Below, in pieces: positions 2,250 to 14,612 of a DNA stretch of 64,000 bases. Both the position numbers and the translations under genes were made by a program. The stretch is from Candidatus Eremiobacteria bacterium (lineage in GTDB: Bacteria; Vulcanimicrobiota; Vulcanimicrobiia; Vulcanimicrobiales; Vulcanimicrobiaceae). How positions within the stretch are numbered: the first letter of the stretch is position 1; the number at the start of each line of letters is the position of its first letter. Under the pieces are notes generated by a model. The model searched no databases, was not told the DNA's origin, and was given only the letters and a program-made list of their open reading frames with translations. The stretch covers positions 97,779 through 161,778 of the forward strand of contig CAVWUU010000006.1 of NCBI GenBank assembly GCA_963758295.1. The letters run 5' to 3'.

Positions 2250-4169
2250 TCAGCGACGTTTAGTTGTCGATTTCTTTTTCGTCGTCGTTCCTTTAGATGA
2301 CGGCTTCGAGGCTTTCTTTACCGGCCTCGATGCGACGGCTTTTTTCGCCGCCGTTGGTTTTGCAGCACTCTTTGCTGCCGGTTTCTTCGCTTTCGGCGCA
2401 GCCTTCGTTGCTGTCTTCTTGGCCGGCGCCTTCTTGCTTGTGCTCGCAGCTTTCTTCGGCGCGAGTTTCTTCGCTGCGGGTTTTGCAGCGTTCGTCTTTC
2501 CCGCCGGCTTTGCCGCTGGTTTTGCGGCGCTCTTTTTTGCGGCCGGTTTTGCGGCCGGTTTTGCGGCCGGTTTTGCGGCGACGGTCTTTTTCGCCGTCGC
2601 GGCTTTTACCGGCGCTTTAGCGACGGGTGCTTTACGGGCGGGCGCAGCTTTTGCTGCGGCAGCCTTTACCGGAGCTTTTGCCGCGGGCGCCTTAGCAGCG
2701 GCCGGCGCTTTAACAACGGCGTGGACCTTGTCTGCAGCCGGGGGTTTTACGGCCGCCGCCGCTTTTGCGGCAGCCGGTTTTTCGGCCGTTTTTTTCGCCG
2801 GTTTTTCGGCAACCGGTTCTGGTTGGGGTTCCCGCGCCGGTGCAGCCGCAGGCTTTGCAGACGCTGGGCGGCGTTTGGTTTTTTTTGCGGTGTCGGGCTG
2901 CGGCGTTTGTTCTTGCTCGGATTCGTCTTTGGCTTGAGCGGCTTGTTCTTTCGCCGCAGCGGAAGATGCCGCGGACGCGGCCGAACGTCGCGACGTGCTC
3001 TTGGCCGGCGCCTCCTCCGCTTCCGGAGTTTTCGTCGTGCGCGCCGGGCTGCTCGCACGTTTCTTCGGACTCGTGTCGCGTCGCGTCTTCGGTGCCTCGT
3101 CGGGGGAGCGTTCCGGTTCCTCAGGCAACCCCAGTTCCGCGCGGCTCAAACCGCTGATACTGCTGCCCGGCTGGACCGGCTCTTGCGTCTTCTGCTGTTT
3201 TTCGATGTGTTCTTTAGTGGCGCGGAGCGCAACGCGCGCGAGCCGGCCGCCAACCGGGAAGACGATCTCGTTGACGTCGCAGTCGTCGAGCATCTGCAGC
3301 ACGACGTCGAAGGCCGCGCCTTGGTCTTTCGGGCTGTGCGCGGCCGATCCAACGGCAATCGGAACGTTTTTTGCCTTCGCTTTGCGCATCAGACGTTTGT
3401 TGACGTCGATGAAGCGCCGGCGCTGCTCGTCGGGAAGATCGCGATAAAGCTCCCGAGTGCAGACTTCGATGGCCATGCCGCGCGCAAGCACGGCTTCCAG
3501 CATGCGGTCTTCGTACTGCTGAAGTTTTGCATCGTCCGGCCAGTGCCCGAACGTCGCCGGGCGATAGAAATTGCCGACGATGTGTCCCGGGAGTTTTTCG
3601 ACGTCGTCTACGAGACGTTCGATGTAAAGTTCCCATACGCGCTCAGCGCCGACGGCTTCGAAGAAATGGGCGAACTCGGGATTGTCAAATGCCCACGCGT
3701 ACTCGCCGCCCTTTTCCGGGTGGTCGATCGTGATGAACTTGACCGAGCGGATCATGCCGTCGGGGCGCATCGCGTCGACGATATTTTGCGCGTCTGGTCT
3801 TGCGCGAGGATCGTTGTCGACCTCGGCGCCGATCGAATACCGCATGCCGCGGCGCAGGCCTTCGCCCACGACGGCCGCATGCGCGACATCTACGCCAGCG
3901 GTTTCCGCCGCACCGTACAAGTCGCCGGCATGCGCAAGCTTCAGCGCGCGGCGAACGGTGTTCACAGCTCCCGGATCTTCGAACGTGAGGTAGTTGACGT
4001 GGTCCGAGACCATCAGAAAGCGAGGCGAATTCCGCCGGCATGCATGATAGAACCAGAGGAAGAGCATGCGCGCGGAGTACGCGATGGGCCGCTCCTCGGT
4101 GAACGGTCTGTGCTCGCCTTTGGCATGACCGTGGATGTCGGGGATGGCCGCGATACGTGGGTCGCTCAG
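2250..4169 (-). CDS. PHP-domain protein (degenerate metal site) fused to a long Lys/Ala/Pro-rich histone-H1/AlgP-like tail
   Basis: DIHGH, SDH, GAEVD and GSAAHSP PHP-like motifs in the first ~315 aa, then low-complexity KPAA/PAKK repeats. Start inferred at CTG 4169 overlapping the upstream TGA. Confidence 0.8.
   Translation of the reverse strand: MSDPRIAAIPDIHGHAKGEHRPFTEERPIAYSARMLFLWFYHACRRNSPRFLMVSDHVNYLTFEDPGAVNTVRRALKLAHAGDLYGAAETAGVDVAHAAVVGEGLRRGMRYSIGAEVDNDPRARPDAQNIVDAMRPDGMIRSVKFITIDHPEKGGEYAWAFDNPEFAHFFEAVGAERVWELYIERLVDDVEKLPGHIVGNFYRPATFGHWPDDAKLQQYEDRMLEAVLARGMAIEVCTRELYRDLPDEQRRRFIDVNKRLMRKAKAKNVPIAVGSAAHSPKDQGAAFDVVLQMLDDCDVNEIVFPVGGRLARVALRATKEHIEKQQKTQEPVQPGSSISGLSRAELGLPEEPERSPDEAPKTRRDTSPKKRASSPARTTKTPEAEEAPAKSTSRRSAASAASSAAAKEQAAQAKDESEQEQTPQPDTAKKTKRRPASAKPAAAPAREPQPEPVAEKPAKKTAEKPAAAKAAAAVKPPAADKVHAVVKAPAAAKAPAAKAPVKAAAAKAAPARKAPVAKAPVKAATAKKTVAAKPAAKPAAKPAAKKSAAKPAAKPAGKTNAAKPAAKKLAPKKAASTSKKAPAKKTATKAAPKAKKPAAKSAAKPTAAKKAVASRPVKKASKPSSKGTTTKKKSTTKRR
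2535..2579. repeat. 12-bp tandem repeat (TTTTGCGGCCGG x3 plus a partial copy) encoding PAAK/KPAA units
   Basis: Read directly in the sequence; lies inside the H1-like tail. Confidence 0.9.
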
Positions 4170-4873
4170 CGTTCTACTTCCTTTACACCGCGGGGAATCC
4201 ACATCGAACGGCCCTTTTCTTGCGCTCGTTTCGCTTCGGGCGTCCGTTGCTCGACCCACGGTACGATGGTTTCCAGTAAAATTTCGATCCCTCGTTTCAT
4301 CGTGTCAAGCGACATCGAGGGAGCAGATTGCGCGCCTGCCGTGATGGCTTGCGCGGGCAGATACGGCAAATGCACTAAGCCGGCAACGACCGGCGAATGC
4401 GATTGATCGTTTAGCGCCAGGGTTTCGTACAGCACTTGATTACCGACGAACGTGCCTGCCGCGTTGGAAACGTACCCCGGAACGGCGTTTGCGTTCCACG
4501 CTTCGACGATCCGATCGAAAGGCAGATTCGAAAGACGCGCTTCCGGCCCGCCGCGTGCGATCGCGTCGTTTTTACGCATAACGCCGACGTTATCGGGCGT
4601 GTCGAAATCCAGGAGGTTAACGGCGATGCGTTCGAGCGAAAGCGCCGGACGGCCGCCCATCTGCGACAAGCAAACCACGACGTCGGGATTTTCCTGGACC
4701 AGCGCTTGTTCCATCCGTTCCCGGATGTTGCGCGTTTCCACCGGAAAGATCCTAACAGCAACGGACCGCCCGGAGATCATAGAGTTCTCCAGACTGCGCG
4801 CGACCATCTCGCTCGGATTTATCTTCTCGCCACCGAATGGTTCGAACCCGGTGATCAGGACGTGCTTTGCCAC
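4166..4873 (-). CDS. pcp: Pyroglutamyl-peptidase I (C15) family protein, catalytic Cys replaced by Gly
   Basis: VLITGFEPFGGEKINPS N-terminus, SLERIAVN, AGTFVGN (family normally AGxxVCN), VHLPY. GTG start at 4873. Confidence 0.85.
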   Translation of the reverse strand: MAKHVLITGFEPFGGEKINPSEMVARSLENSMISGRSVAVRIFPVETRNIRERMEQALVQENPDVVVCLSQMGGRPALSLERIAVNLLDFDTPDNVGVMRKNDAIARGGPEARLSNLPFDRIVEAWNANAVPGYVSNAAGTFVGNQVLYETLALNDQSHSPVVAGLVHLPYLPAQAITAGAQSAPSMSLDTMKRGIEILLETIVPWVEQRTPEAKRAQEKGRSMWIPRGVKEVER

Positions 4874-4902
4874 CTTCTTTAAGGTTGGCTCTTGCGCACG
4901 GG

Positions 4903-5643
4903 CTACCTCTCGGGTTGGTAACCTTCCATGCGTAGGATTCGCGCCTTCATCTCGATGCCGTAGCCGTAGTTGTGCAGATCGCCCGCGGAATCTACCACGC
5001 GGTGGCATGGAAACAAGAGTGGAAGCGGATTGCGCGCCATCACTTGGCCGACCGCACGCGCGGCGCGGGGGCGGCCCATTTGCGTCGCAACCCAGGAATA
5101 GGATCGGACTTCTCCCGGCGGAATCTCGGCTGCCGCTCGCAACGCCGCCTGCTCGAACGGGGTGAGGTCGCTGATGTCGACCTTCTTGTCATCGACGCGC
5201 CAGGTTTTGAAAAATTCATCGAGGGTCGCCTTGAGCCACGCGGGCGGCTCGCCGGCTTGAACGCTTCGCCGCAGCCGGGTTTCGACGCGCTCGCGAACCC
5301 GTTCGAACGGCTCCCCGGTGTCGATGCCGATGTACGCGATGCGGTTCTCTTTGAAGCCGACGTAAAGCCGGCCGACCGGCGTCTCGACCGATGTGAGCGC
5401 AATCGGCGTCGGACGTTCTTTGTATTTGGTTTGCGCGATGTGTTGTACCACGCGTTTGGCCAAGTCGCACGACGGCTCAGGCTTCGGCAGGCACGAGAGG
5501 CAATAAGCGACTCCCTCGTACTGTTCGTAAAGCTCTTGGCACGGCGGGCACGTGCGCAGATGCGTTTCGACGGCGTCCTTTACCGACCGCTGGCACTCGC
5601 CGCGGATTTCGTCCCACAGCGATTCGACGTCACGACAACGCAT
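4903..5643 (-). CDS. ogt: Zinc-finger anti-sigma (zf-HC2/ZAS) domain fused to methylated-DNA-protein-cysteine methyltransferase
   Basis: N-terminal C3-x24-H28-x3-C32-x2-C35; C-terminal IPPGEVRSY, RAVGQVMARNP and PCHRV active-site motif. Confidence 0.9.
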   Translation of the reverse strand: MRCRDVESLWDEIRGECQRSVKDAVETHLRTCPPCQELYEQYEGVAYCLSCLPKPEPSCDLAKRVVQHIAQTKYKERPTPIALTSVETPVGRLYVGFKENRIAYIGIDTGEPFERVRERVETRLRRSVQAGEPPAWLKATLDEFFKTWRVDDKKVDISDLTPFEQAALRAAAEIPPGEVRSYSWVATQMGRPRAARAVGQVMARNPLPLLFPCHRVVDSAGDLHNYGYGIEMKARILRMEGYQPER

Positions 5644-6298
5644 GAACGGAGGCTCCTTCAGAGGGAATTCGACCAATTTGCGGCCCGAGAATTTTCCGCA
5701 GAATGCGCACGGCGCGATGCACGTGCGACTTCACCGTGCCGATTGGCTGGTGAAGGATCTCGGCGATTTCCGGATGGCTGCGACCTTCGATGAAGCGCAG
5801 TGTTGCTGCGGCGCGAAGGTGCATCGGAAGTTGTAAGAGCGCCCGTTCGACGAGCGCGACCTCGGCGTTCTGCTCGACGATGGTTTCCGGGCGAGCCGGC
5901 CCTTCTTGCGTCTCGCGAAGCAGCGCGTCGGGATCGGCGAGTGAGTCGAGGGCGACGCTCGTCGGACGTTTGCTGCGCAGGCGGTTGCGAGTAACGTTCA
6001 ACGTGATGGTGTATAGCCATGGTTGGAGCCGCAGCTCACGCCGCTGTTCCTCGGACATTTTGCCGAGCGCGCGATAGGCGCGTACGAATGAATCTTGGAC
6101 GATCTCTTCGGCGTCTTCGCGATTGCCCGTCATACGCAAAGCAAATCCGTAGAGGCGACGCTGATAGTCGTCTACGATTGTGTCGAAGTTGTCCGGTGCA
6201 GGTACCGGCTTGCCTTCTGCCCGTTCTGACGAGGGCTTCGGCTGCTGGACCGTAGGTGGCACGAATACTCCCTGGAGGAGTGGTGCGAGCGCGCTCAT
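5630..6298 (-). CDS. ECF-family RNA polymerase sigma factor
   Basis: Region 2 DAEEIVQDSFVRAY..WLYTI..N; region 4 EIAEILHQPIGTVKSHVHRA. Overlaps the next gene by 14 nt. Confidence 0.93.
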   Translation of the reverse strand: MSALAPLLQGVFVPPTVQQPKPSSERAEGKPVPAPDNFDTIVDDYQRRLYGFALRMTGNREDAEEIVQDSFVRAYRALGKMSEEQRRELRLQPWLYTITLNVTRNRLRSKRPTSVALDSLADPDALLRETQEGPARPETIVEQNAEVALVERALLQLPMHLRAAATLRFIEGRSHPEIAEILHQPIGTVKSHVHRAVRILRKILGPQIGRIPSEGASVHALS

Positions 6299-6334
6299 AC
6301 GTGGACTCAGGACCGCTCCTCGATACCGCGAGGT

Positions 6335-6358
6335 TTCACGCCCGGGCGATAATCTCCT
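6335..6358 (-). promoter_or_regulatory. Putative sigma-H-like promoter AGGA-N17-GAA upstream of the ECF gene
   Basis: Same bipartite motif as found before many other genes in this window. Confidence 0.4.
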
Positions 6359-6515: not shown

Positions 6516-6923
6516 ATGAGGTTAAAGCTTATGCAGCAAGCGATCGAACCGACGGAGATTTCATTCGACGCGTTTACGATGTGCAGCTTTCAGCCCGATC
6601 TCGGCTCGGCTCGGGCCGTCCCGATCGTGCTCATCGGATACCGCAAGAACGAAGATCCGTGGTTCGTCTGGCTGGTTCCCAAGGAAGGGATCAGCACGTC
6701 CGGACTAACCGACGATCCCTATTACGCCAAAGTGTTGCACGACCCACATTCGTATTTCACGAAAAAGCTTTCGAAATACATCGAGGAAACGGGTTGCGTA
6801 AAGCGCGGGATCGAAATGTTGATCGATTACCATCAAAGCCATCTCGCGTTTACGCCGCTAACGATTCTCGGCGAGATGCCGTTCAGGCACCGCCTCGAGG
6901 TCGAGCTGGTCGGAGCGTGTTGA
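6516..6923 (+). CDS. Hypothetical protein (135 aa)
   Basis: ATG preceded by AAGGAAAG; fills the gap between opposite-strand genes; no recognisable motif. Confidence 0.7.
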   Translation: MRLKLMQQAIEPTEISFDAFTMCSFQPDLGSARAVPIVLIGYRKNEDPWFVWLVPKEGISTSGLTDDPYYAKVLHDPHSYFTKKLSKYIEETGCVKRGIEMLIDYHQSHLAFTPLTILGEMPFRHRLEVELVGAC

Positions 6924-9171: not shown

Positions 9172-9933
9172 GTGGACGATTACACTCGCCGGCGCCGTCG
9201 CATAGCCCCCGAAGAACCGCAGGGCGGGGGCGGACTGCCGATCTTTCCGCTGGTCCTGGCTGTCATTTTTGCCGGCTTGCTTTTGGGCGGTCTGCTCGCG
9301 CATTTCATGGGCAACCGTTCGCCCGTACCGGCCGGCGCGTCTTCGGCCCCGTCGGTCACCCCGCTTCCGGCCGAAGGATCCACGCCAACGCTCGGGCCCA
9401 CCGCAACGCCCGAGCCGAGTGAGTTGCCGTCGCCTACGGCTTCCCCACAAAAATCAGCAAGGCCGACGTCGACCTCAAAACCGAGTCCCGAACCTACGCC
9501 AAGCCCCGCTCCCACGCTGACGCCTACGGCTCGCCCATCCGTCATCTTCATTACCCCCGCTCCGCAGGCGCCGTCCGCAAAAACCGCCGCCCCAAAAACA
9601 GCCGGAACCGCTGCACCTACGGAAACGCCCGCTCCTATCGCTCCCGGCGGCGGCTCCGACCGCGCCACTGCGGTCGTCCACTCGTATCTCTCTGCGCTCG
9701 CCCGCGGTGATGAATCAAGCGCCGCCAGCTACCTCATGAGCGGATTGCCGAGCGAAAAATTCATGGGTCCCGGCGCCAAAATCACTTCGCTCAACACCAT
9801 CAAAAATGCCGACGGCACTTATAAAGTCACCGCCGACATCCAAACCCAATCCGGCGAATACTTCGAGACTTTCACCGTCGAAAACGGTCCCGCCGGCATG
9901 CAAATCTCCGACCATTACTCCATCAAACCTTAA
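9172..9933 (+). CDS. Single-TM protein with Pro/Thr/Ser-rich linker and small C-terminal domain
   Basis: TM segment IFPLVLAVIFAGLLLGGLL; PT-rich linker. Confidence 0.8.
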   Translation: MDDYTRRRRRIAPEEPQGGGGLPIFPLVLAVIFAGLLLGGLLAHFMGNRSPVPAGASSAPSVTPLPAEGSTPTLGPTATPEPSELPSPTASPQKSARPTSTSKPSPEPTPSPAPTLTPTARPSVIFITPAPQAPSAKTAAPKTAGTAAPTETPAPIAPGGGSDRATAVVHSYLSALARGDESSAASYLMSGLPSEKFMGPGAKITSLNTIKNADGTYKVTADIQTQSGEYFETFTVENGPAGMQISDHYSIKP

Positions 9934-10117
9934 CCTCGCCGCTCCCCGATCGCCTCCCAGCATTGTTTCCCGCTCTCATACAGAGCGCAACCGCGGAAGT
10001 TTGCTGGCGGCAAGTTGTGGGAAAAGGGAAGGCCCAGTGGATGCATTCGTATCAGAACGTCCGGATTTTCGGATGTACTGGTTGAACAGCGTCCGCCATT
10101 TTGCACTCTCATGGGGC

Positions 10118-10142
10118 AGGGCCGCCGGTTCCGCCCTCTTAA
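10118..10142 (+). promoter_or_regulatory. Putative sigma-H-like promoter AGGG-N18-TAA, 11 nt before the rsbR ATG
   Basis: Read directly; spacing shared with other instances. Confidence 0.45.
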
Positions 10143-10153
10143 CAGCAGGGGCC

Positions 10154-11005
10154 ATGACGACAGTACAGGACACGAGCACCCGGATGGCCGGATCGCTGCA
10201 GACCAGTCGCGATCGCATCACGAGCCAGTGGATTGCTGCAGTGAGCGCTTCGTCTAAAGGGCGGTTGAGCGCTAACGAAACCAAGGAAGAACTGTTCCCG
10301 ATTTTCGATGCGCTGGTTCGCGGAATGCGCCAAGGCTCGTTCGACGCAAATCATTCCGCGTACGACGAGTTGCGTGCGATGCTCTCGGAGTATTCAGGTA
10401 CGCGCGCGCGCAGCGGCTTTACACCTTCGGAGACCGCGATTGCCGTGTTCGCTTTGCGTGATGCCGTGCTGACGGCGCTCGAAGGAGGCAACGACGCAGA
10501 CTATGCCGAGTTTGCGCCGTTCTCGCGTCTGATCGACGAATTCGGTTTGATGACGTTCGAAGCGTTCGCGCAAACTCGTGAGACGATTATTACGAGCCAA
10601 GCCGAACAATTGCTCGAGCTCTCCACGCCGGTCGTGAAACTGTGGGATGGTGTCGTCGCCGTTCCCCTCGTGGGAACACTCGATTCGGCCCGCACGCAAG
10701 TCGTGATGGAAGAGCTGCTTCAAGCGCTGGTTTCTTCCGGGAGCGCGCATGCGATCATCGACATCACCGGCGTTGCCGCGGTCGATACACAGGTTGCGCA
10801 ACATTTGCTGAAAACCGTTATGGCGGCGCGCCTTATGGGTGCGGAATGCATGATCTCCGGCATCCGTCCGCAGATCGCCCAAACGATCGTCGCGCTCGGA
10901 ATCGAATTCGGCGACATCGTTACGAAGGCAACGCTTGCCGATGCTCTGCGCCTCACTCTGCAACGCGCCGGCTTTGAAGTGCGAAAAGGCGACCGCAAAG
11001 CGTGA
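10154..11005 (+). CDS. rsbR: Stressosome RsbR (N-terminal RsbRD_N/globin-like domain plus STAS)
   Basis: LLELSTPVV, PLVGTLDS, IIDITGV..VDTQVA, ISGIRPQIAQT. Confidence 0.92.
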   Translation: MTTVQDTSTRMAGSLQTSRDRITSQWIAAVSASSKGRLSANETKEELFPIFDALVRGMRQGSFDANHSAYDELRAMLSEYSGTRARSGFTPSETAIAVFALRDAVLTALEGGNDADYAEFAPFSRLIDEFGLMTFEAFAQTRETIITSQAEQLLELSTPVVKLWDGVVAVPLVGTLDSARTQVVMEELLQALVSSGSAHAIIDITGVAAVDTQVAQHLLKTVMAARLMGAECMISGIRPQIAQTIVALGIEFGDIVTKATLADALRLTLQRAGFEVRKGDRKA

Positions 11006-11430
11006 CCGATCGTATTCCGATCCTGAAGGTCGGAGAATTTCTCCTCGTTTCGATTCAAACGGATTTAAGCGACGATACGACGATGGCGCTTCAGGACGAT
11101 CTGTCCAACCGCATCGTCCAGACCGGAGCGCGGGGTGTCGTCATCGACATCTCGGCGCTTGAGATCGTCGATAGCTTCATCGGACGAATGCTGGCGACGA
11201 TTGCCTCCATGTCGCGGGTCCTTGATGCCGACACGGTCGTGGCAGGTATGCGGCCTGCAGTAGCAATTACGCTCACCGAACTAGGTCTCTATCTCGGCGG
11301 AGTTCGAACCGCTCTCACTTTGGAAATGGCGTTTGAACTGCTCCGCCGGCGTCTGAGTGTTGCCCACGTCGTCGAAGAAGATGACGAAGCGTCGGCTTTG
11401 CGGGCCGAGGCCGAAATTGCGACTAGCTGA
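11002..11430 (+). CDS. rsbS: Stressosome RsbS (STAS)
   Basis: IPILK, IDISALEIVDSF (phospho-Ser motif), GMRPAVAITL. Confidence 0.92.
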   Translation: MTDRIPILKVGEFLLVSIQTDLSDDTTMALQDDLSNRIVQTGARGVVIDISALEIVDSFIGRMLATIASMSRVLDADTVVAGMRPAVAITLTELGLYLGGVRTALTLEMAFELLRRRLSVAHVVEEDDEASALRAEAEIATS

Positions 11431-11851
11431 TTCCCTTGCTGCTTCCGGCGAAGCGGGCGTCGCAAAATTCGAGATTCAAAGCGATGCCGACGTCGTTCGA
11501 GTGCGGCAAGCCGTTCGCGCGCTTGCGCAACAAGCGAAGCTTTCGATCGTCGAGCAGACGAAGGTCGTCACGGCGGCGAGCGAACTAGCGCGAAATACGC
11601 TTATTCACGGCGGCGGCGGCACGGCGGAGGTACAGCTTGTCAGCGAAGGCCCGAAAACCGGCATTCGCGCGACCTTCGCCGACCACGGCCCCGGCATCGC
11701 CGATCTCGAGCGCGCGATGACCGGCGGCTTCAGCACCGGCAGCGGTCTCGGCCTGGGCCTCTCGGGGAGCCGCCGTCTTGTGGATGCCTTCGATCTGGAC
11801 ACGGAAGCTGGACGCGGCACCCGCATCACGGTAACGAAGTGGGCTCGGTGA
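11417..11851 (+). CDS. rsbT: Stressosome Ser/Thr kinase RsbT
   Basis: DVVRVRQ, SELARN, DHGPGI, GFSTGSGLGLGL, GRGTRI; start approximate. Confidence 0.92.
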   Translation: MRLADSLAASGEAGVAKFEIQSDADVVRVRQAVRALAQQAKLSIVEQTKVVTAASELARNTLIHGGGGTAEVQLVSEGPKTGIRATFADHGPGIADLERAMTGGFSTGSGLGLGLSGSRRLVDAFDLDTEAGRGTRITVTKWAR

Positions 11852-12840
11852 TCGAATGGTCGGAAGACGCCGCATGGATTCCGGTAGAGGATGAAAGTGC
11901 GCCCGGCCGCGTGCGGCGCATGGCGATTGCGCGGGCAAAGGCACTCGGGCTTCCGGAGCATCGCGTGGGCGAAGTTGCGATTGCGGCGACGGAGCTCGCA
12001 ACGAATCTTCAGCGTCATGCCGTGCGCGGCGTCATGCTGGTTCAGGTGCGTCGCGACACCGCAACGGTCGAGTTGTTGGCTTTGGATTCAGGCCCCGGCG
12101 TAGCGGATCTCAGCGCGTTGACGCGCGATGGAAATTCAACGGCTGGAACGCTTGGCATCGGGCTCGGCGCGTTGACGCGGCTTGCCACGACTTTCGACGC
12201 GCATTCCGTTCCGGGGAGGGGAACGGTCGTGCTTGTCACGTTCGGGTCATCCGCCGAACCGCCGGAACGCGTGCCGGTTGCGGGGCTGACGCGATCGATG
12301 AACGGCGAAACGGCGTGCGGTGACGCCTGGGCGCAACGCACGGGGAATCGAACGACGACGCTTTTACTTGCCGATGGTTTGGGCCATGGAGAGCTCGCCG
12401 CCATCGCATCCCGTGCGGCGGTGCGCACGTTTATCTCCGTCGAAGAAGAAGACGACCTTACGAGCATCATGCAGCGCTTCGACGGCGCACTGCGAAGCAC
12501 GCGCGGCGCCGCGGTTGCCTTGCTGCGCATCGACCGCGACGCCGCGAAGGTTCGCTTTGCCGGGGTCGGCAACGTCAGCGCGTGGATCGATGACGGCGAA
12601 AAACGCCAAGGACTTGTATCAATGCCCGGCATCGTGGGCAGCAACGTGAAAAAGATTCGAGAGATCGAAGTGGGGCTTCCCGAAGACGCCGTGATCGTCA
12701 TGCATTCCGACGGAATTAGCGCCAAATGGAATTTGAAGTCGTATCCCGGCTTGCGCGCGCACGACCGGCGCATTGTGGCCGCCACTTTACTTCGTGACGC
12801 CGGCGTCCATCACGACGACGCGTCCATCTTGGTCGCATGA
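11848..12840 (+). CDS. RsbT-like HATPase plus SpoIIE/PP2C phosphatase (RsbX-like)
   Basis: TELATN, DSGPG, TLGIGLG; CGD, ADGLGHG, HSDGI, DDAS. Confidence 0.88.
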   Translation: MIEWSEDAAWIPVEDESAPGRVRRMAIARAKALGLPEHRVGEVAIAATELATNLQRHAVRGVMLVQVRRDTATVELLALDSGPGVADLSALTRDGNSTAGTLGIGLGALTRLATTFDAHSVPGRGTVVLVTFGSSAEPPERVPVAGLTRSMNGETACGDAWAQRTGNRTTTLLLADGLGHGELAAIASRAAVRTFISVEEEDDLTSIMQRFDGALRSTRGAAVALLRIDRDAAKVRFAGVGNVSAWIDDGEKRQGLVSMPGIVGSNVKKIREIEVGLPEDAVIVMHSDGISAKWNLKSYPGLRAHDRRIVAATLLRDAGVHHDDASILVA

Positions 12841-14612
12841 GCGCCAAGCCCGCAACGCTCTCCGTGCGCCGTCCGGAAGACGTCTTCGTGCTCCGGCAAA
12901 GCGGGCGCGCGGCGGCGGCCGTTCTTGGCTGCGAGGAGGCAGACCAGGTACGATTCGCGACCGCTTTGAGCGAGCTCGGCCGCGAGGCGCTGTTGCATCG
13001 CGGCAAACCGTCGGTGACGTTTACGGTGAGCTCCGCCGGAACGCTGGATGTTTCCATGGAGCGTTTTCCGCGCGCGGGCCTAACAAAAAGCGGAACGTTC
13101 AGCGGATTCGAGGCCGCGCGCAAACTGTTGGATACCGTAACCGTAAGCGATCTAGGCGAAACTGCCGACGTCGTTACCGTGGTGTTGAAGCGAACGCCGC
13201 CGCGCCGGCATCCCGCTTACACGGCACAAGAAGTGTACGAAGCGATCCGCCGCACGGCGGTTCCGCAGCCGCTCGAAGAATTGCGCCTTGAGAATCGCGA
13301 TTTGATTGCGACTCTCGAAGAAGTCCGCGCCAAACAGGACGAGCTGATTCGACTGAACGCCGAACTCGAAGAAACGAATCGCGGCGTGATGGCTATGTAC
13401 TCGCAACTCGCCGGAGAACTGGAAGAGACGAACCGCGGCGTTGTTGCGCTCTATGCCGAACTTGACGACAAGAGCGCGCGGCTCAACGAAGCAAACGAAG
13501 CCAAAAGCCGCTTCTTGGCCAATGCGAGCCACGAATTGCGCAGCCCGGTCAACTCCATTCTGGGCCTCGTGCGCCTAATGCTCGATCCCGAAAGCGACGC
13601 GCTCACAGAAGAACAGCGCAAGCAATTGGCGCTGATCATGACGTCTTCCAGCGAGTTGCTAAAGCTTGTCAACGATCTGCTCGATCTTGCGAAAGCCGAG
13701 GCCGGCAAGTTACAGCCCGAAGTTTCGCCAGTGCATCTTGACGAGCTCTTCGGCGAACTGCGCGGGTCGCTTCGTCCGCTCGCCCGTGTTGGGGTGACGC
13801 TCGTCGTCGACCCGCCGCAAACGCCCGTGCTGGAGACGGACCGTACGCTGCTCATGCAGATTCTTCGAAATCTAGCAAGCAATGCTTTGAAGTTCACGCT
13901 GCAAGGCGAAGTTCGAATTTCTGCTCGGCCCAGCTCGCCGTACGAGATTGAAGTTACGGTAACCGATACCGGCGTTGGAATCGCGCCCGATGACCAGGCC
14001 AAGATCTTCGAGGAGTTTTTCCAAGTTCGCGGACCGCTGCAGGTCGATCAAAAAGGCAGCGGATTAGGCCTTCCTTACGCGCGCCGTGTATCGCGCGCTC
14101 TGGGCGGAGACATCACGCTCGTGAGCGCCGCCGGGAAAGGCAGCACGTTCGTCGTACGCCTTCCGGTGCTGTGGCCGGTCTTGGCGCGCCCGTCACAGTT
14201 GCCCACGGTCGAAGAACTCAAACCCCTTGGGATCGGCACCGTGCTGGTGGTCGACGACGATGACGGCTTTCGCACGGTCTTGCGTGGAATGCTACAGGGC
14301 TTGGCTACGCACGTGCTGGAAGCGCGCGGCGGCGCCGAAGGCCTGGAGCTCATGCGCTCCGCGCGTCCCGACATGGCGTTCATCGATTTACAAATGCCGG
14401 ATATCGACGGTGGAGATGTCCTTGCCGAAATGAACGCCGATCCAAATTTGCGCAACATTCCCGTCGTCATCGTTACGTCGACGCAACTGAACGTGCGTCA
14501 TCGCGCGCGGCTCGGCATGGCATCGTCACTGCTCGGAAAGTCGGAGCTCACGCGTGCGACCGTGCATCGCGTCTTGTCTCAAGTCTTGGAAACCGTGGGC
14601 GCGCCTAAATGA
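12837..14612 (+). CDS. Hybrid sensor histidine kinase (HisKA-HATPase-REC)
   Basis: SHELRSP, NLASNALKFT, DTGVGI, GSGLGL; C-terminal receiver VVDDD..DLQMP..K. Confidence 0.92.
   Translation: MSAKPATLSVRRPEDVFVLRQSGRAAAAVLGCEEADQVRFATALSELGREALLHRGKPSVTFTVSSAGTLDVSMERFPRAGLTKSGTFSGFEAARKLLDTVTVSDLGETADVVTVVLKRTPPRRHPAYTAQEVYEAIRRTAVPQPLEELRLENRDLIATLEEVRAKQDELIRLNAELEETNRGVMAMYSQLAGELEETNRGVVALYAELDDKSARLNEANEAKSRFLANASHELRSPVNSILGLVRLMLDPESDALTEEQRKQLALIMTSSSELLKLVNDLLDLAKAEAGKLQPEVSPVHLDELFGELRGSLRPLARVGVTLVVDPPQTPVLETDRTLLMQILRNLASNALKFTLQGEVRISARPSSPYEIEVTVTDTGVGIAPDDQAKIFEEFFQVRGPLQVDQKGSGLGLPYARRVSRALGGDITLVSAAGKGSTFVVRLPVLWPVLARPSQLPTVEELKPLGIGTVLVVDDDDGFRTVLRGMLQGLATHVLEARGGAEGLELMRSARPDMAFIDLQMPDIDGGDVLAEMNADPNLRNIPVVIVTSTQLNVRHRARLGMASSLLGKSELTRATVHRVLSQVLETVGAPK

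Follow-up and report, generated by a model that had tools for sequence, protein, structure and literature searches.

A putative zinc anti-sigma domain fused to an O6-alkylguanine-DNA alkyltransferase, encoded next to an ECF sigma factor in Eremiobacterota

Why should the gene of an ECF sigma factor overlap that of a DNA-repair alkyltransferase, and could the repair enzyme control the sigma factor? The question is raised by a locus on the minus strand of a 64,000-nucleotide stretch of a Candidatus Eremiobacteria genome, referred to here as the window. The pairing of ECF and ogt genes as such is already catalogued, in the groups ECF122 and ECF203 (Casas-Pastor et al. 2021, PMC7826278). The available sections of that classification describe both groups as actinobacterial, with a methylguanine methyltransferase at position +1 and no anti-sigma factor. 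No description of an anti-sigma–alkyltransferase fusion was found in the freely accessible literature searched. A review of alkyltransferases contains no mention of sigma in its available sections (PMC10779285), and none of six repair terms occur in PMC7776599.

The sigma factor gene and its fused partner

The features of the operon are as follows.
5630..6298, minus strand: ECF sigma factor gene (222 aa, P0002), identified by Pfam and TIGR02937 and placed in an ECF203-like clade by the tree.
5643-4903, minus strand: partner gene (246 aa, P0001), start ATG at 5643, stop at 4903.
5630..5643, minus strand: 14-bp overlap of the sigma stop and the partner start, consistent with translational coupling.
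5425..5643, minus strand: putative class I zinc anti-sigma domain, partner residues 1-73, with ligands C3, H28, C32 and C35 and helix 4 at residues 61-73.
4903..5409, minus strand: O6-alkylguanine-DNA alkyltransferase domain, partner residues 79-243, complete with RNase H-like N-domain, HTH and active site.
4999..5010, minus strand: PCHR active-site motif in the sequence, partner residues 212-215, with acceptor Cys213, present in 120 of 120 homologs.
6311..6338, minus strand: predicted autoregulatory ECF promoter, with -35 TGAAACC at 6338-6332, a 17-nt spacer and -10 GGTC at 6314-6311.

The product of the first gene matches Pfam Sigma70_r2 (E 2.6e-15) and r4_2 (E 2.2e-13) and scores above the cut-off of TIGR02937. 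The initial annotation had proposed that the stop of this gene overlaps a second gene, encoding a ZAS motif without a transmembrane helix, followed by a full Ogt domain with an intact PCHR, and each of these elements was found. The ECF gene runs 14 bp into the partner gene, and the overlap has the same size in 56 of the 58 loci in which it could be measured; it is 11 bp in one of the others, and the second reads through. The ORF caller had put the partner start at TTG 5676, upstream of the adopted ATG 5643. In an alignment of 120 partner homologs, out of 947 found, this Met is residue 1 of the 246-residue form in every sequence, and most loci carry an AGGAG-type motif 5' of the ATG. The partner protein is soluble, without a transmembrane helix, its highest 19-residue Kyte-Doolittle mean being 0.69.

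The N-terminal zinc motif of the partner, C3-x24-H28-x3-C32-x2-C35, has all four ligands invariant in the 120 homologs. The Pfam model zf-HC2 gives 22.1 bits on the protein, against a cut-off of 22.2, and 27 bits in a genome scan. A profile of the first 78 partner residues, built from 26 sequences, matched RsiW (5wuq_C) over residues 1-75 with E 1.9e-5 and RslA (3hug_B) with E 6.5e-4, and these were its sole matches below E 0.3. The AlphaFold2 model of the partner monomer (pLDDT 92, pTM 0.69, linker pLDDT about 70) has helices at residues 3-14, 19-31, 33-50 and 61-73, which form a three-helix bundle, a linker and a fourth helix. In a fold search, RsiW (5wuq_C) was the top row that was not an Ogt (Z 6.6, rmsd 4.2, 69 aligned), and the best non-alkyltransferase rows were the anti-sigmas RsiW, PupR and MucA, with Z values of 6.0-6.6 that are modest for helical bundles. 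Three features of zinc anti-sigma (ZAS/ASDI) domains are present: Hx3Cx2C with an upstream Cys/His ligand, the four-helix layout, and a position directly 3' of an ECF gene. Helix 4 is the main predicted sigma-2 contact in class I zinc anti-sigmas, according to the available text of PMC7406223. The RsiW profile match and the presence of all four helices strengthen the anti-sigma assignment made initially, and by these homologies the 246-residue partner very probably acts as anti-sigma factor to the ECF sigma factor encoded upstream.

The window protein shares the C-H-C-C zinc site and the four-helix domain, at residues 1-75, with RsiW of the SigW-RsiW pair of B. subtilis (5wuq), RslA, RsrA and ChrR. 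RsiW sits in the membrane and is cleaved by proteases, RsrA responds to thiol oxidation, and ChrR carries a cupin sensor, whereas the domain appended in the window protein is a suicide DNA-repair enzyme.

The first 60 residues of the partner contain seven cysteines. In addition to the zinc ligands, C48 is conserved in 114, C51 in 101 and C59 in all 120 of the homologs, and these residues (48-59, window positions 5467-5502, minus strand) may form a second metal or thiol site together with the conserved H68. The partner could be a real anti-sigma factor that is switched, like RsrA and RshA, when its zinc-thiolate or Cys-rich domain is oxidised, attacked by electrophiles or alkylated directly; the Ogt half would then be useful cargo, produced each time the operon is expressed. 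Soluble zinc anti-sigmas are often redox sensors (PMC7406223, available text), and such a switch would fit the abundance of cysteines, the family-wide conservation of C48 and C51 and the conserved C59, as well as a weak match of the RsrA NCBIfam model (E 0.0014, far under its cut-off). We nevertheless consider a thiol switch unlikely, in part because RsrA-type flanks are missing. In redox-sensitive ZAS proteins the first Cys is preceded by acidic residues, and the second is followed by Leu and a charged residue (PMC3177212, available text). Flanks of this RsrA/RshA type were not found in the partner motif, HLRTCPPCQE: of 55 sequences, 38 have RA or RT ahead of the first Cys and 54 have Q behind the second.

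The C-terminal half of the partner matches the Pfam family DNA_binding_1 with E 3.5e-28 and TIGR00589 with 88.9 bits against a cut-off of 46.4. The fold of residues 79-243 superimposes on E. coli Ada-C (1sfe) with Z 19.8 and an rmsd of 2.4 Å over 161 aligned residues, and the half thus has the two-domain Ogt/MGMT fold. All 69 aligned rows, down to 24% identity, share Y182, R196, N205, P212-C213-H214-R215, Y226, K233 and E240. Besides the PCHR motif, we take this set to comprise the Tyr and Arg finger, the Asn hinge, and the catalytic Lys and Glu. These roles are partly confirmed in the available text of PMC10779285. Since the catalytic residues are invariant, the alkyltransferase half is probably active. 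The Ada-C fold match and the conservation of the arrangement across the family argue that the combination of domains is not a product of chance.

An active alkyltransferase may signal by transferring the alkyl group or by binding the lesion; docking on damaged DNA might displace the sigma factor or relocate the complex. Alkyltransferase-like proteins mark lesions, and the DNA-binding residues Y182 and R196 and the HTH of the partner are invariant. Signalling by lesion binding is rather improbable, however, as the acceptor Cys is kept in all 120 homologs and in 51 of 51 distant ECF-linked partners (from the metagenome loci described below, the best 80 out of 594), whereas an alkyltransferase-like gene of the window genome has lost it, with PAHR in place of PCHR.

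Distribution, gene neighbourhood and promoter

The named relatives of the partner belong to Eremiobacterota/Vulcanimicrobiota. The gene is present in 131 of 131 family genomes and 3 of 3 genomes of the same order; the 66 remaining genomes of the phylum that were searched, at E 1e-25, gave no match. An ECF gene adjoins the partner in 60 of 61 named loci, and a contig end truncates the remaining one; it is likewise there in all 15 of the more distant family loci. Because the whole neighbourhood is syntenic, adjacency within the family is weak evidence by itself.

Several neighbouring genes lie on the same strand after the operon: one for pyroglutamyl peptidase I (4166-4882, minus), which is missing at the corresponding place in some relatives, and one for an EF-G-like GTPase (140-2200, minus). 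Between them, a gene that is conserved 3' of the operon (2250-4259, minus) overlaps the peptidase gene and encodes a HisJ/PHP-like domain, scoring below the cut-off, followed by a long Lys/Ala/Pro-rich tail reminiscent of histone H1. On the other side, a conserved 135-residue gene without a Pfam match (6516-6923, plus) is divergent from the ECF gene in nearly all family loci. Further away, RsbR/RsbS-like STAS genes, a kinase/phosphatase and a hybrid histidine kinase (9806-14612, plus) form a stressosome-type operon.

In the window, 40 nt separate the -35 element from the sigma ATG, and this distance predicts a near-leaderless mRNA. The sequence TG[A/C]AAC occurs 37-41 nt 5' of the sigma ATG in all 56 upstream regions, and another conserved block (G/T-G-T) follows at +24 to +27, about 17 nt past it. 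Of 15 distant family loci, 13 do not fit the pattern in its strict form; judged by eye, and with C allowed at the first position, 11 of these 15 share the motif. Ten metagenome loci have this promoter type too, as do records from Rubrobacter, Nonomuraea and Streptomyces. A conserved site 5' of the sigma gene typically marks an ECF sigma factor that regulates its own gene, and autoregulation is predicted here.

A promoter that is recognised by its own sigma factor normally needs a brake. This speaks against a relic or constitutive buffer at the N-terminus of the partner that no longer regulates the sigma factor, with ECF and ogt genes just co-transcribed under other control, for example by TetR. 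We regard such a loss of function as quite improbable: within the family the domain is strongly conserved, helix 4 included, and no conserved regulator gene occurs among the neighbours examined. It would be in keeping with the borderline zf-HC2 score, with the erosion of the zinc domain in many lineages, and with the classification of ECF122 and ECF203 without an anti-sigma factor and the TetR control suggested for ECF203 (PMC7826278, available sections).

A promoter matrix was built from 28 sigma-gene sites, all from other genomes, and applied to the 5328 ORF starts of the window genome. An unlinked ogt gene ranked first (19.9 bits) and the ECF gene of the window second (17.8 bits), followed by the next site at 14.2 bits. 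The top site lies 44 nt before the ATG of this standalone ogt (G000 C1:261593-262114, loci L143 and L152, region C1:261549-262117). We estimate the chance of such a first rank at about 3 in 5328, in a genome with three other Ogt-family genes. That the top match precedes an ogt rather than a thiol gene also counts against the thiol switch.

Close relatives of the unlinked ogt occur in 6 of 121 class genomes. The promoter site is not a general feature of standalone ogt genes: 1 of 16 others had a site that reached 11 bits (Fisher p 0.09, not significant), and a later set had the site in 0 of 5; a looser pattern, chosen after seeing the matches, was present at 4 of 17 standalone ogt genes. No site was found before the alkB, HhH-GPD or AraC-ogt genes of the window genome, nor before 23 ada/araC-ogt genes. 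The motif is not enriched genome-wide (29 occurrences versus 28 and 36 in the Markov control). A strict pattern occurred at 19 places in 61 family genomes, and the expected gene clearly followed at only four of them, those in front of the ECF gene. As the alkB, HhH-GPD, AraC-ogt and ada/araC-ogt genes are without the site, the regulon is predicted to be tiny, its narrow output consisting mostly of the sigma operon itself.

Distant relatives and known ECF groups

Fusions of a zinc domain to an Ogt exist outside the family at 28-37% identity, often with a C-terminal Ada zinc module, in clusters named Chloroflexota and Acidobacteriota. From 594 metagenome loci, the best 80 were chosen by their likeness to zinc-domain–Ogt fusions. 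The gene immediately 5' of the Ogt encodes an ECF sigma factor in 51 of these 80; 14 lack such a neighbour and 15 end too early, which gives 51 of the 65 loci with enough sequence. Start and stop overlap in 33 of 39 measured ECF-Ogt pairs. A full zinc domain is present in 6 of the 51 ECF-linked partners, and most others are extended at this end by only some 20-45 residues. The architecture envisaged initially, a zinc domain plus an alkyltransferase next to an ECF gene, recurs in this sample: all six metagenome loci that have a full zinc domain and room for a neighbour carry the ECF gene.

Most of these relatives have lost the zinc ligands but retain the Ogt, its catalytic Cys (in 51 of 51) and a helix-Pro-helix remnant. 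This pattern suggests that the shared sensor is the Ogt and not the zinc site, which speaks against a thiol switch. In the ECF clade of the window (support 97/95), 12 of 16 extensions score 7.6-19.3 bits on a profile of helices 3-4. The 14 Ogts without an ECF gene score at most 2.3 bits, several of them having almost no N-terminal sequence to score, and the scores of ECF122-type short extensions are not above background. An Ada-type C-terminal Cys motif is present in 31 of the 51 ECF-linked partners versus 0 of the 14 unlinked Ogts, and Pfam Ada_Zn_binding was confirmed on representatives. The strongest comparative argument for a self-consuming anti-sigma factor is the repeated loss of the zinc site while the catalytic Cys is kept and a second methyl-accepting module is often added. 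The Ada zinc modules, together with the top promoter rank of the second ogt, support a role of the sigma factor in the response to alkylation.

In the tree, the window sigma factor groups (97/95) with ECFs whose partners consist of Ogt plus Ada zinc, a layout that named actinobacterial loci combine with the promoter type of the window. The available sections of the classification describe ECF203 as 100% actinobacterial, with Ada_Zn_binding nearby, no conserved promoter, TetR and no characterised member (PMC7826278). Like ECF203, the window system has an O6-methylguanine methyltransferase at +1; unlike it, the system belongs to Eremiobacterota and has a full zinc anti-sigma domain and a conserved promoter, and TetR was not seen. 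Of the ECF203 combination of Ogt and Ada_Zn_binding, the window has the Ogt and lacks the Ada zinc module, which the other members of its clade possess. For ECF122, a DNA-repair role has been proposed, with Ogt at +1 as in the window (PMC7826278, PMC8999054, available text). It is described as confined to Actinobacteria, with 'no putative AS factors' and the promoter CTCAC/CGTCTAC (PMC7826278, available sections), whereas the conserved motif of the window is TGAAAC/GGT. The window sigma factor may therefore be called ECF203-like by tree and partner, and not ECF122 by promoter. A sister clade in the tree carries an ECF122-type TCTCAC/CGT promoter, and in one of its members, L129, the Ogt bears a full zinc domain.

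Several of the relatives show peculiarities of their own. Seven related genomes (L232, L244, L245, L246, L248, L249 and L250) contain a second operon of an ECF, a short-extension Ogt and Ada zinc, preceded in five of them by a TGCAAC..GTGTT promoter; cross-talk between this operon and the main system is possible. On Streptomyces plasmids (L188:3944-5946 and L189:3944-5960), the ECF gene, an Ogt-Ada zinc gene and a second ogt lie beside metK/metF/metH and a SARP regulator, which suggests a self-protective role in the vicinity of methyl-group metabolism or of a natural product that methylates. Two further ECF-Ogt clades have, by eye, their own near-leaderless promoters: TTCCAC..CGTATA in L079-L099 and L139, and TTTCAC..GTGT in L102-L118, L125 and L131. 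A scan of 27 ORFs 3' of the distant operons identified no repair family. Apparent natural ECF-ZAS-Ogt fusions (P0297, P0298 and P0299) were rejected as evidence, as they are singleton clusters and, together with L047, resemble frameshifted reads. The model of the apparently frameshifted P0297 has a pTM of 0.47 and zinc-domain pLDDT values of 53-80, and its sigma-2/sigma-4 arrangement is unlike that of a bound sigma factor (rmsd 14-17 Å to the SigW and AlgU complexes); this model was given no weight in either direction.

Proposed mechanism and relation to Ada

Based on the domains of the partner, the promoter and the distant relatives, a mechanism of control can be proposed. At rest, the zinc domain would hold the co-translated sigma factor, as judged from its homology to RsiW-type domains. 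The enzyme half would move an alkyl group from O6-alkylguanine onto Cys213 and would be destabilised by this alkylation, as is known for other alkyltransferases. The alkylated fusion would then be degraded or let go of its target, which would put the anti-sigma half out of action. The freed sigma factor is predicted from the motif to transcribe its own near-leaderless operon and the second, unlinked ogt of the window genome. Newly made, unmethylated fusion would recapture the sigma factor and resume repair, so that the circuit would count lesions and shut itself off. The available text of PMC10779285 reports that alkylation destabilises alkyltransferases and does not establish degradation of the alkylated proteins in bacteria. 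The halves of the window protein look loosely linked in the model (pTM 0.69, linker pLDDT about 70), and their coupling therefore probably requires proteolysis. We give the complete chain, in which the partner is both an anti-sigma factor and a working suicide alkyltransferase whose self-alkylation releases the sigma factor, a chance only slightly better than even.

We speculate more broadly, and with somewhat less than even confidence, that several phyla use alkyltransferases as anti-sigma factors that are consumed by their own action, on a second route from DNA alkylation to transcription that is unrelated to Ada. In ECF122 and ECF203, control would come from the adjacent Ogt, by way of an anti-sigma domain that is either full or shrunken, the Eremiobacterota protein being the intact form. 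If this is true, a sigma factor is under the direct control of a DNA-repair enzyme, in a feedback loop that counts lesions and differs from both Ada and SOS, and the missing regulator is supplied for two ECF groups listed without one. The short form is present in cultured hosts (Streptomyces plasmids, Rubrobacter and Nonomuraea), which makes the idea testable, and the system could provide a small portable biosensor for alkylating agents.

The partner resembles E. coli Ada as a self-methylating repair protein tied to transcription, and its Ogt fold matches Ada-C. Ada turns into an activator upon methylation of its zinc ligand Cys38 (PMC10779285, available text). The partner, in contrast, has neither the AraC domain nor the Ada zinc site, Pfam having detected neither Ada zinc domain nor AraC HTH on P0001, and its proposed output is sigma release. 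The initial description of an 'Ada-independent' response holds in part: the window genome, 82% complete, contains no Ada zinc domain, but it does encode an AraC-Ogt fusion, and canonical Ada is found in 14 of 40 family genomes, counted in regions of higher-scoring unlinked matches. The sigma-Ogt system, as far as gene content indicates, sits beside Ada rather than replacing it. The AraC-Ogt fusion of the window genome (G000 C3:216930-217766, L142) is without the Ada zinc domain and has similar proteins in several family genomes. The two-domain alkyltransferase-like gene with PAHR instead of PCHR (G000 C4:1134502-1135176, L145) is conserved in relatives.
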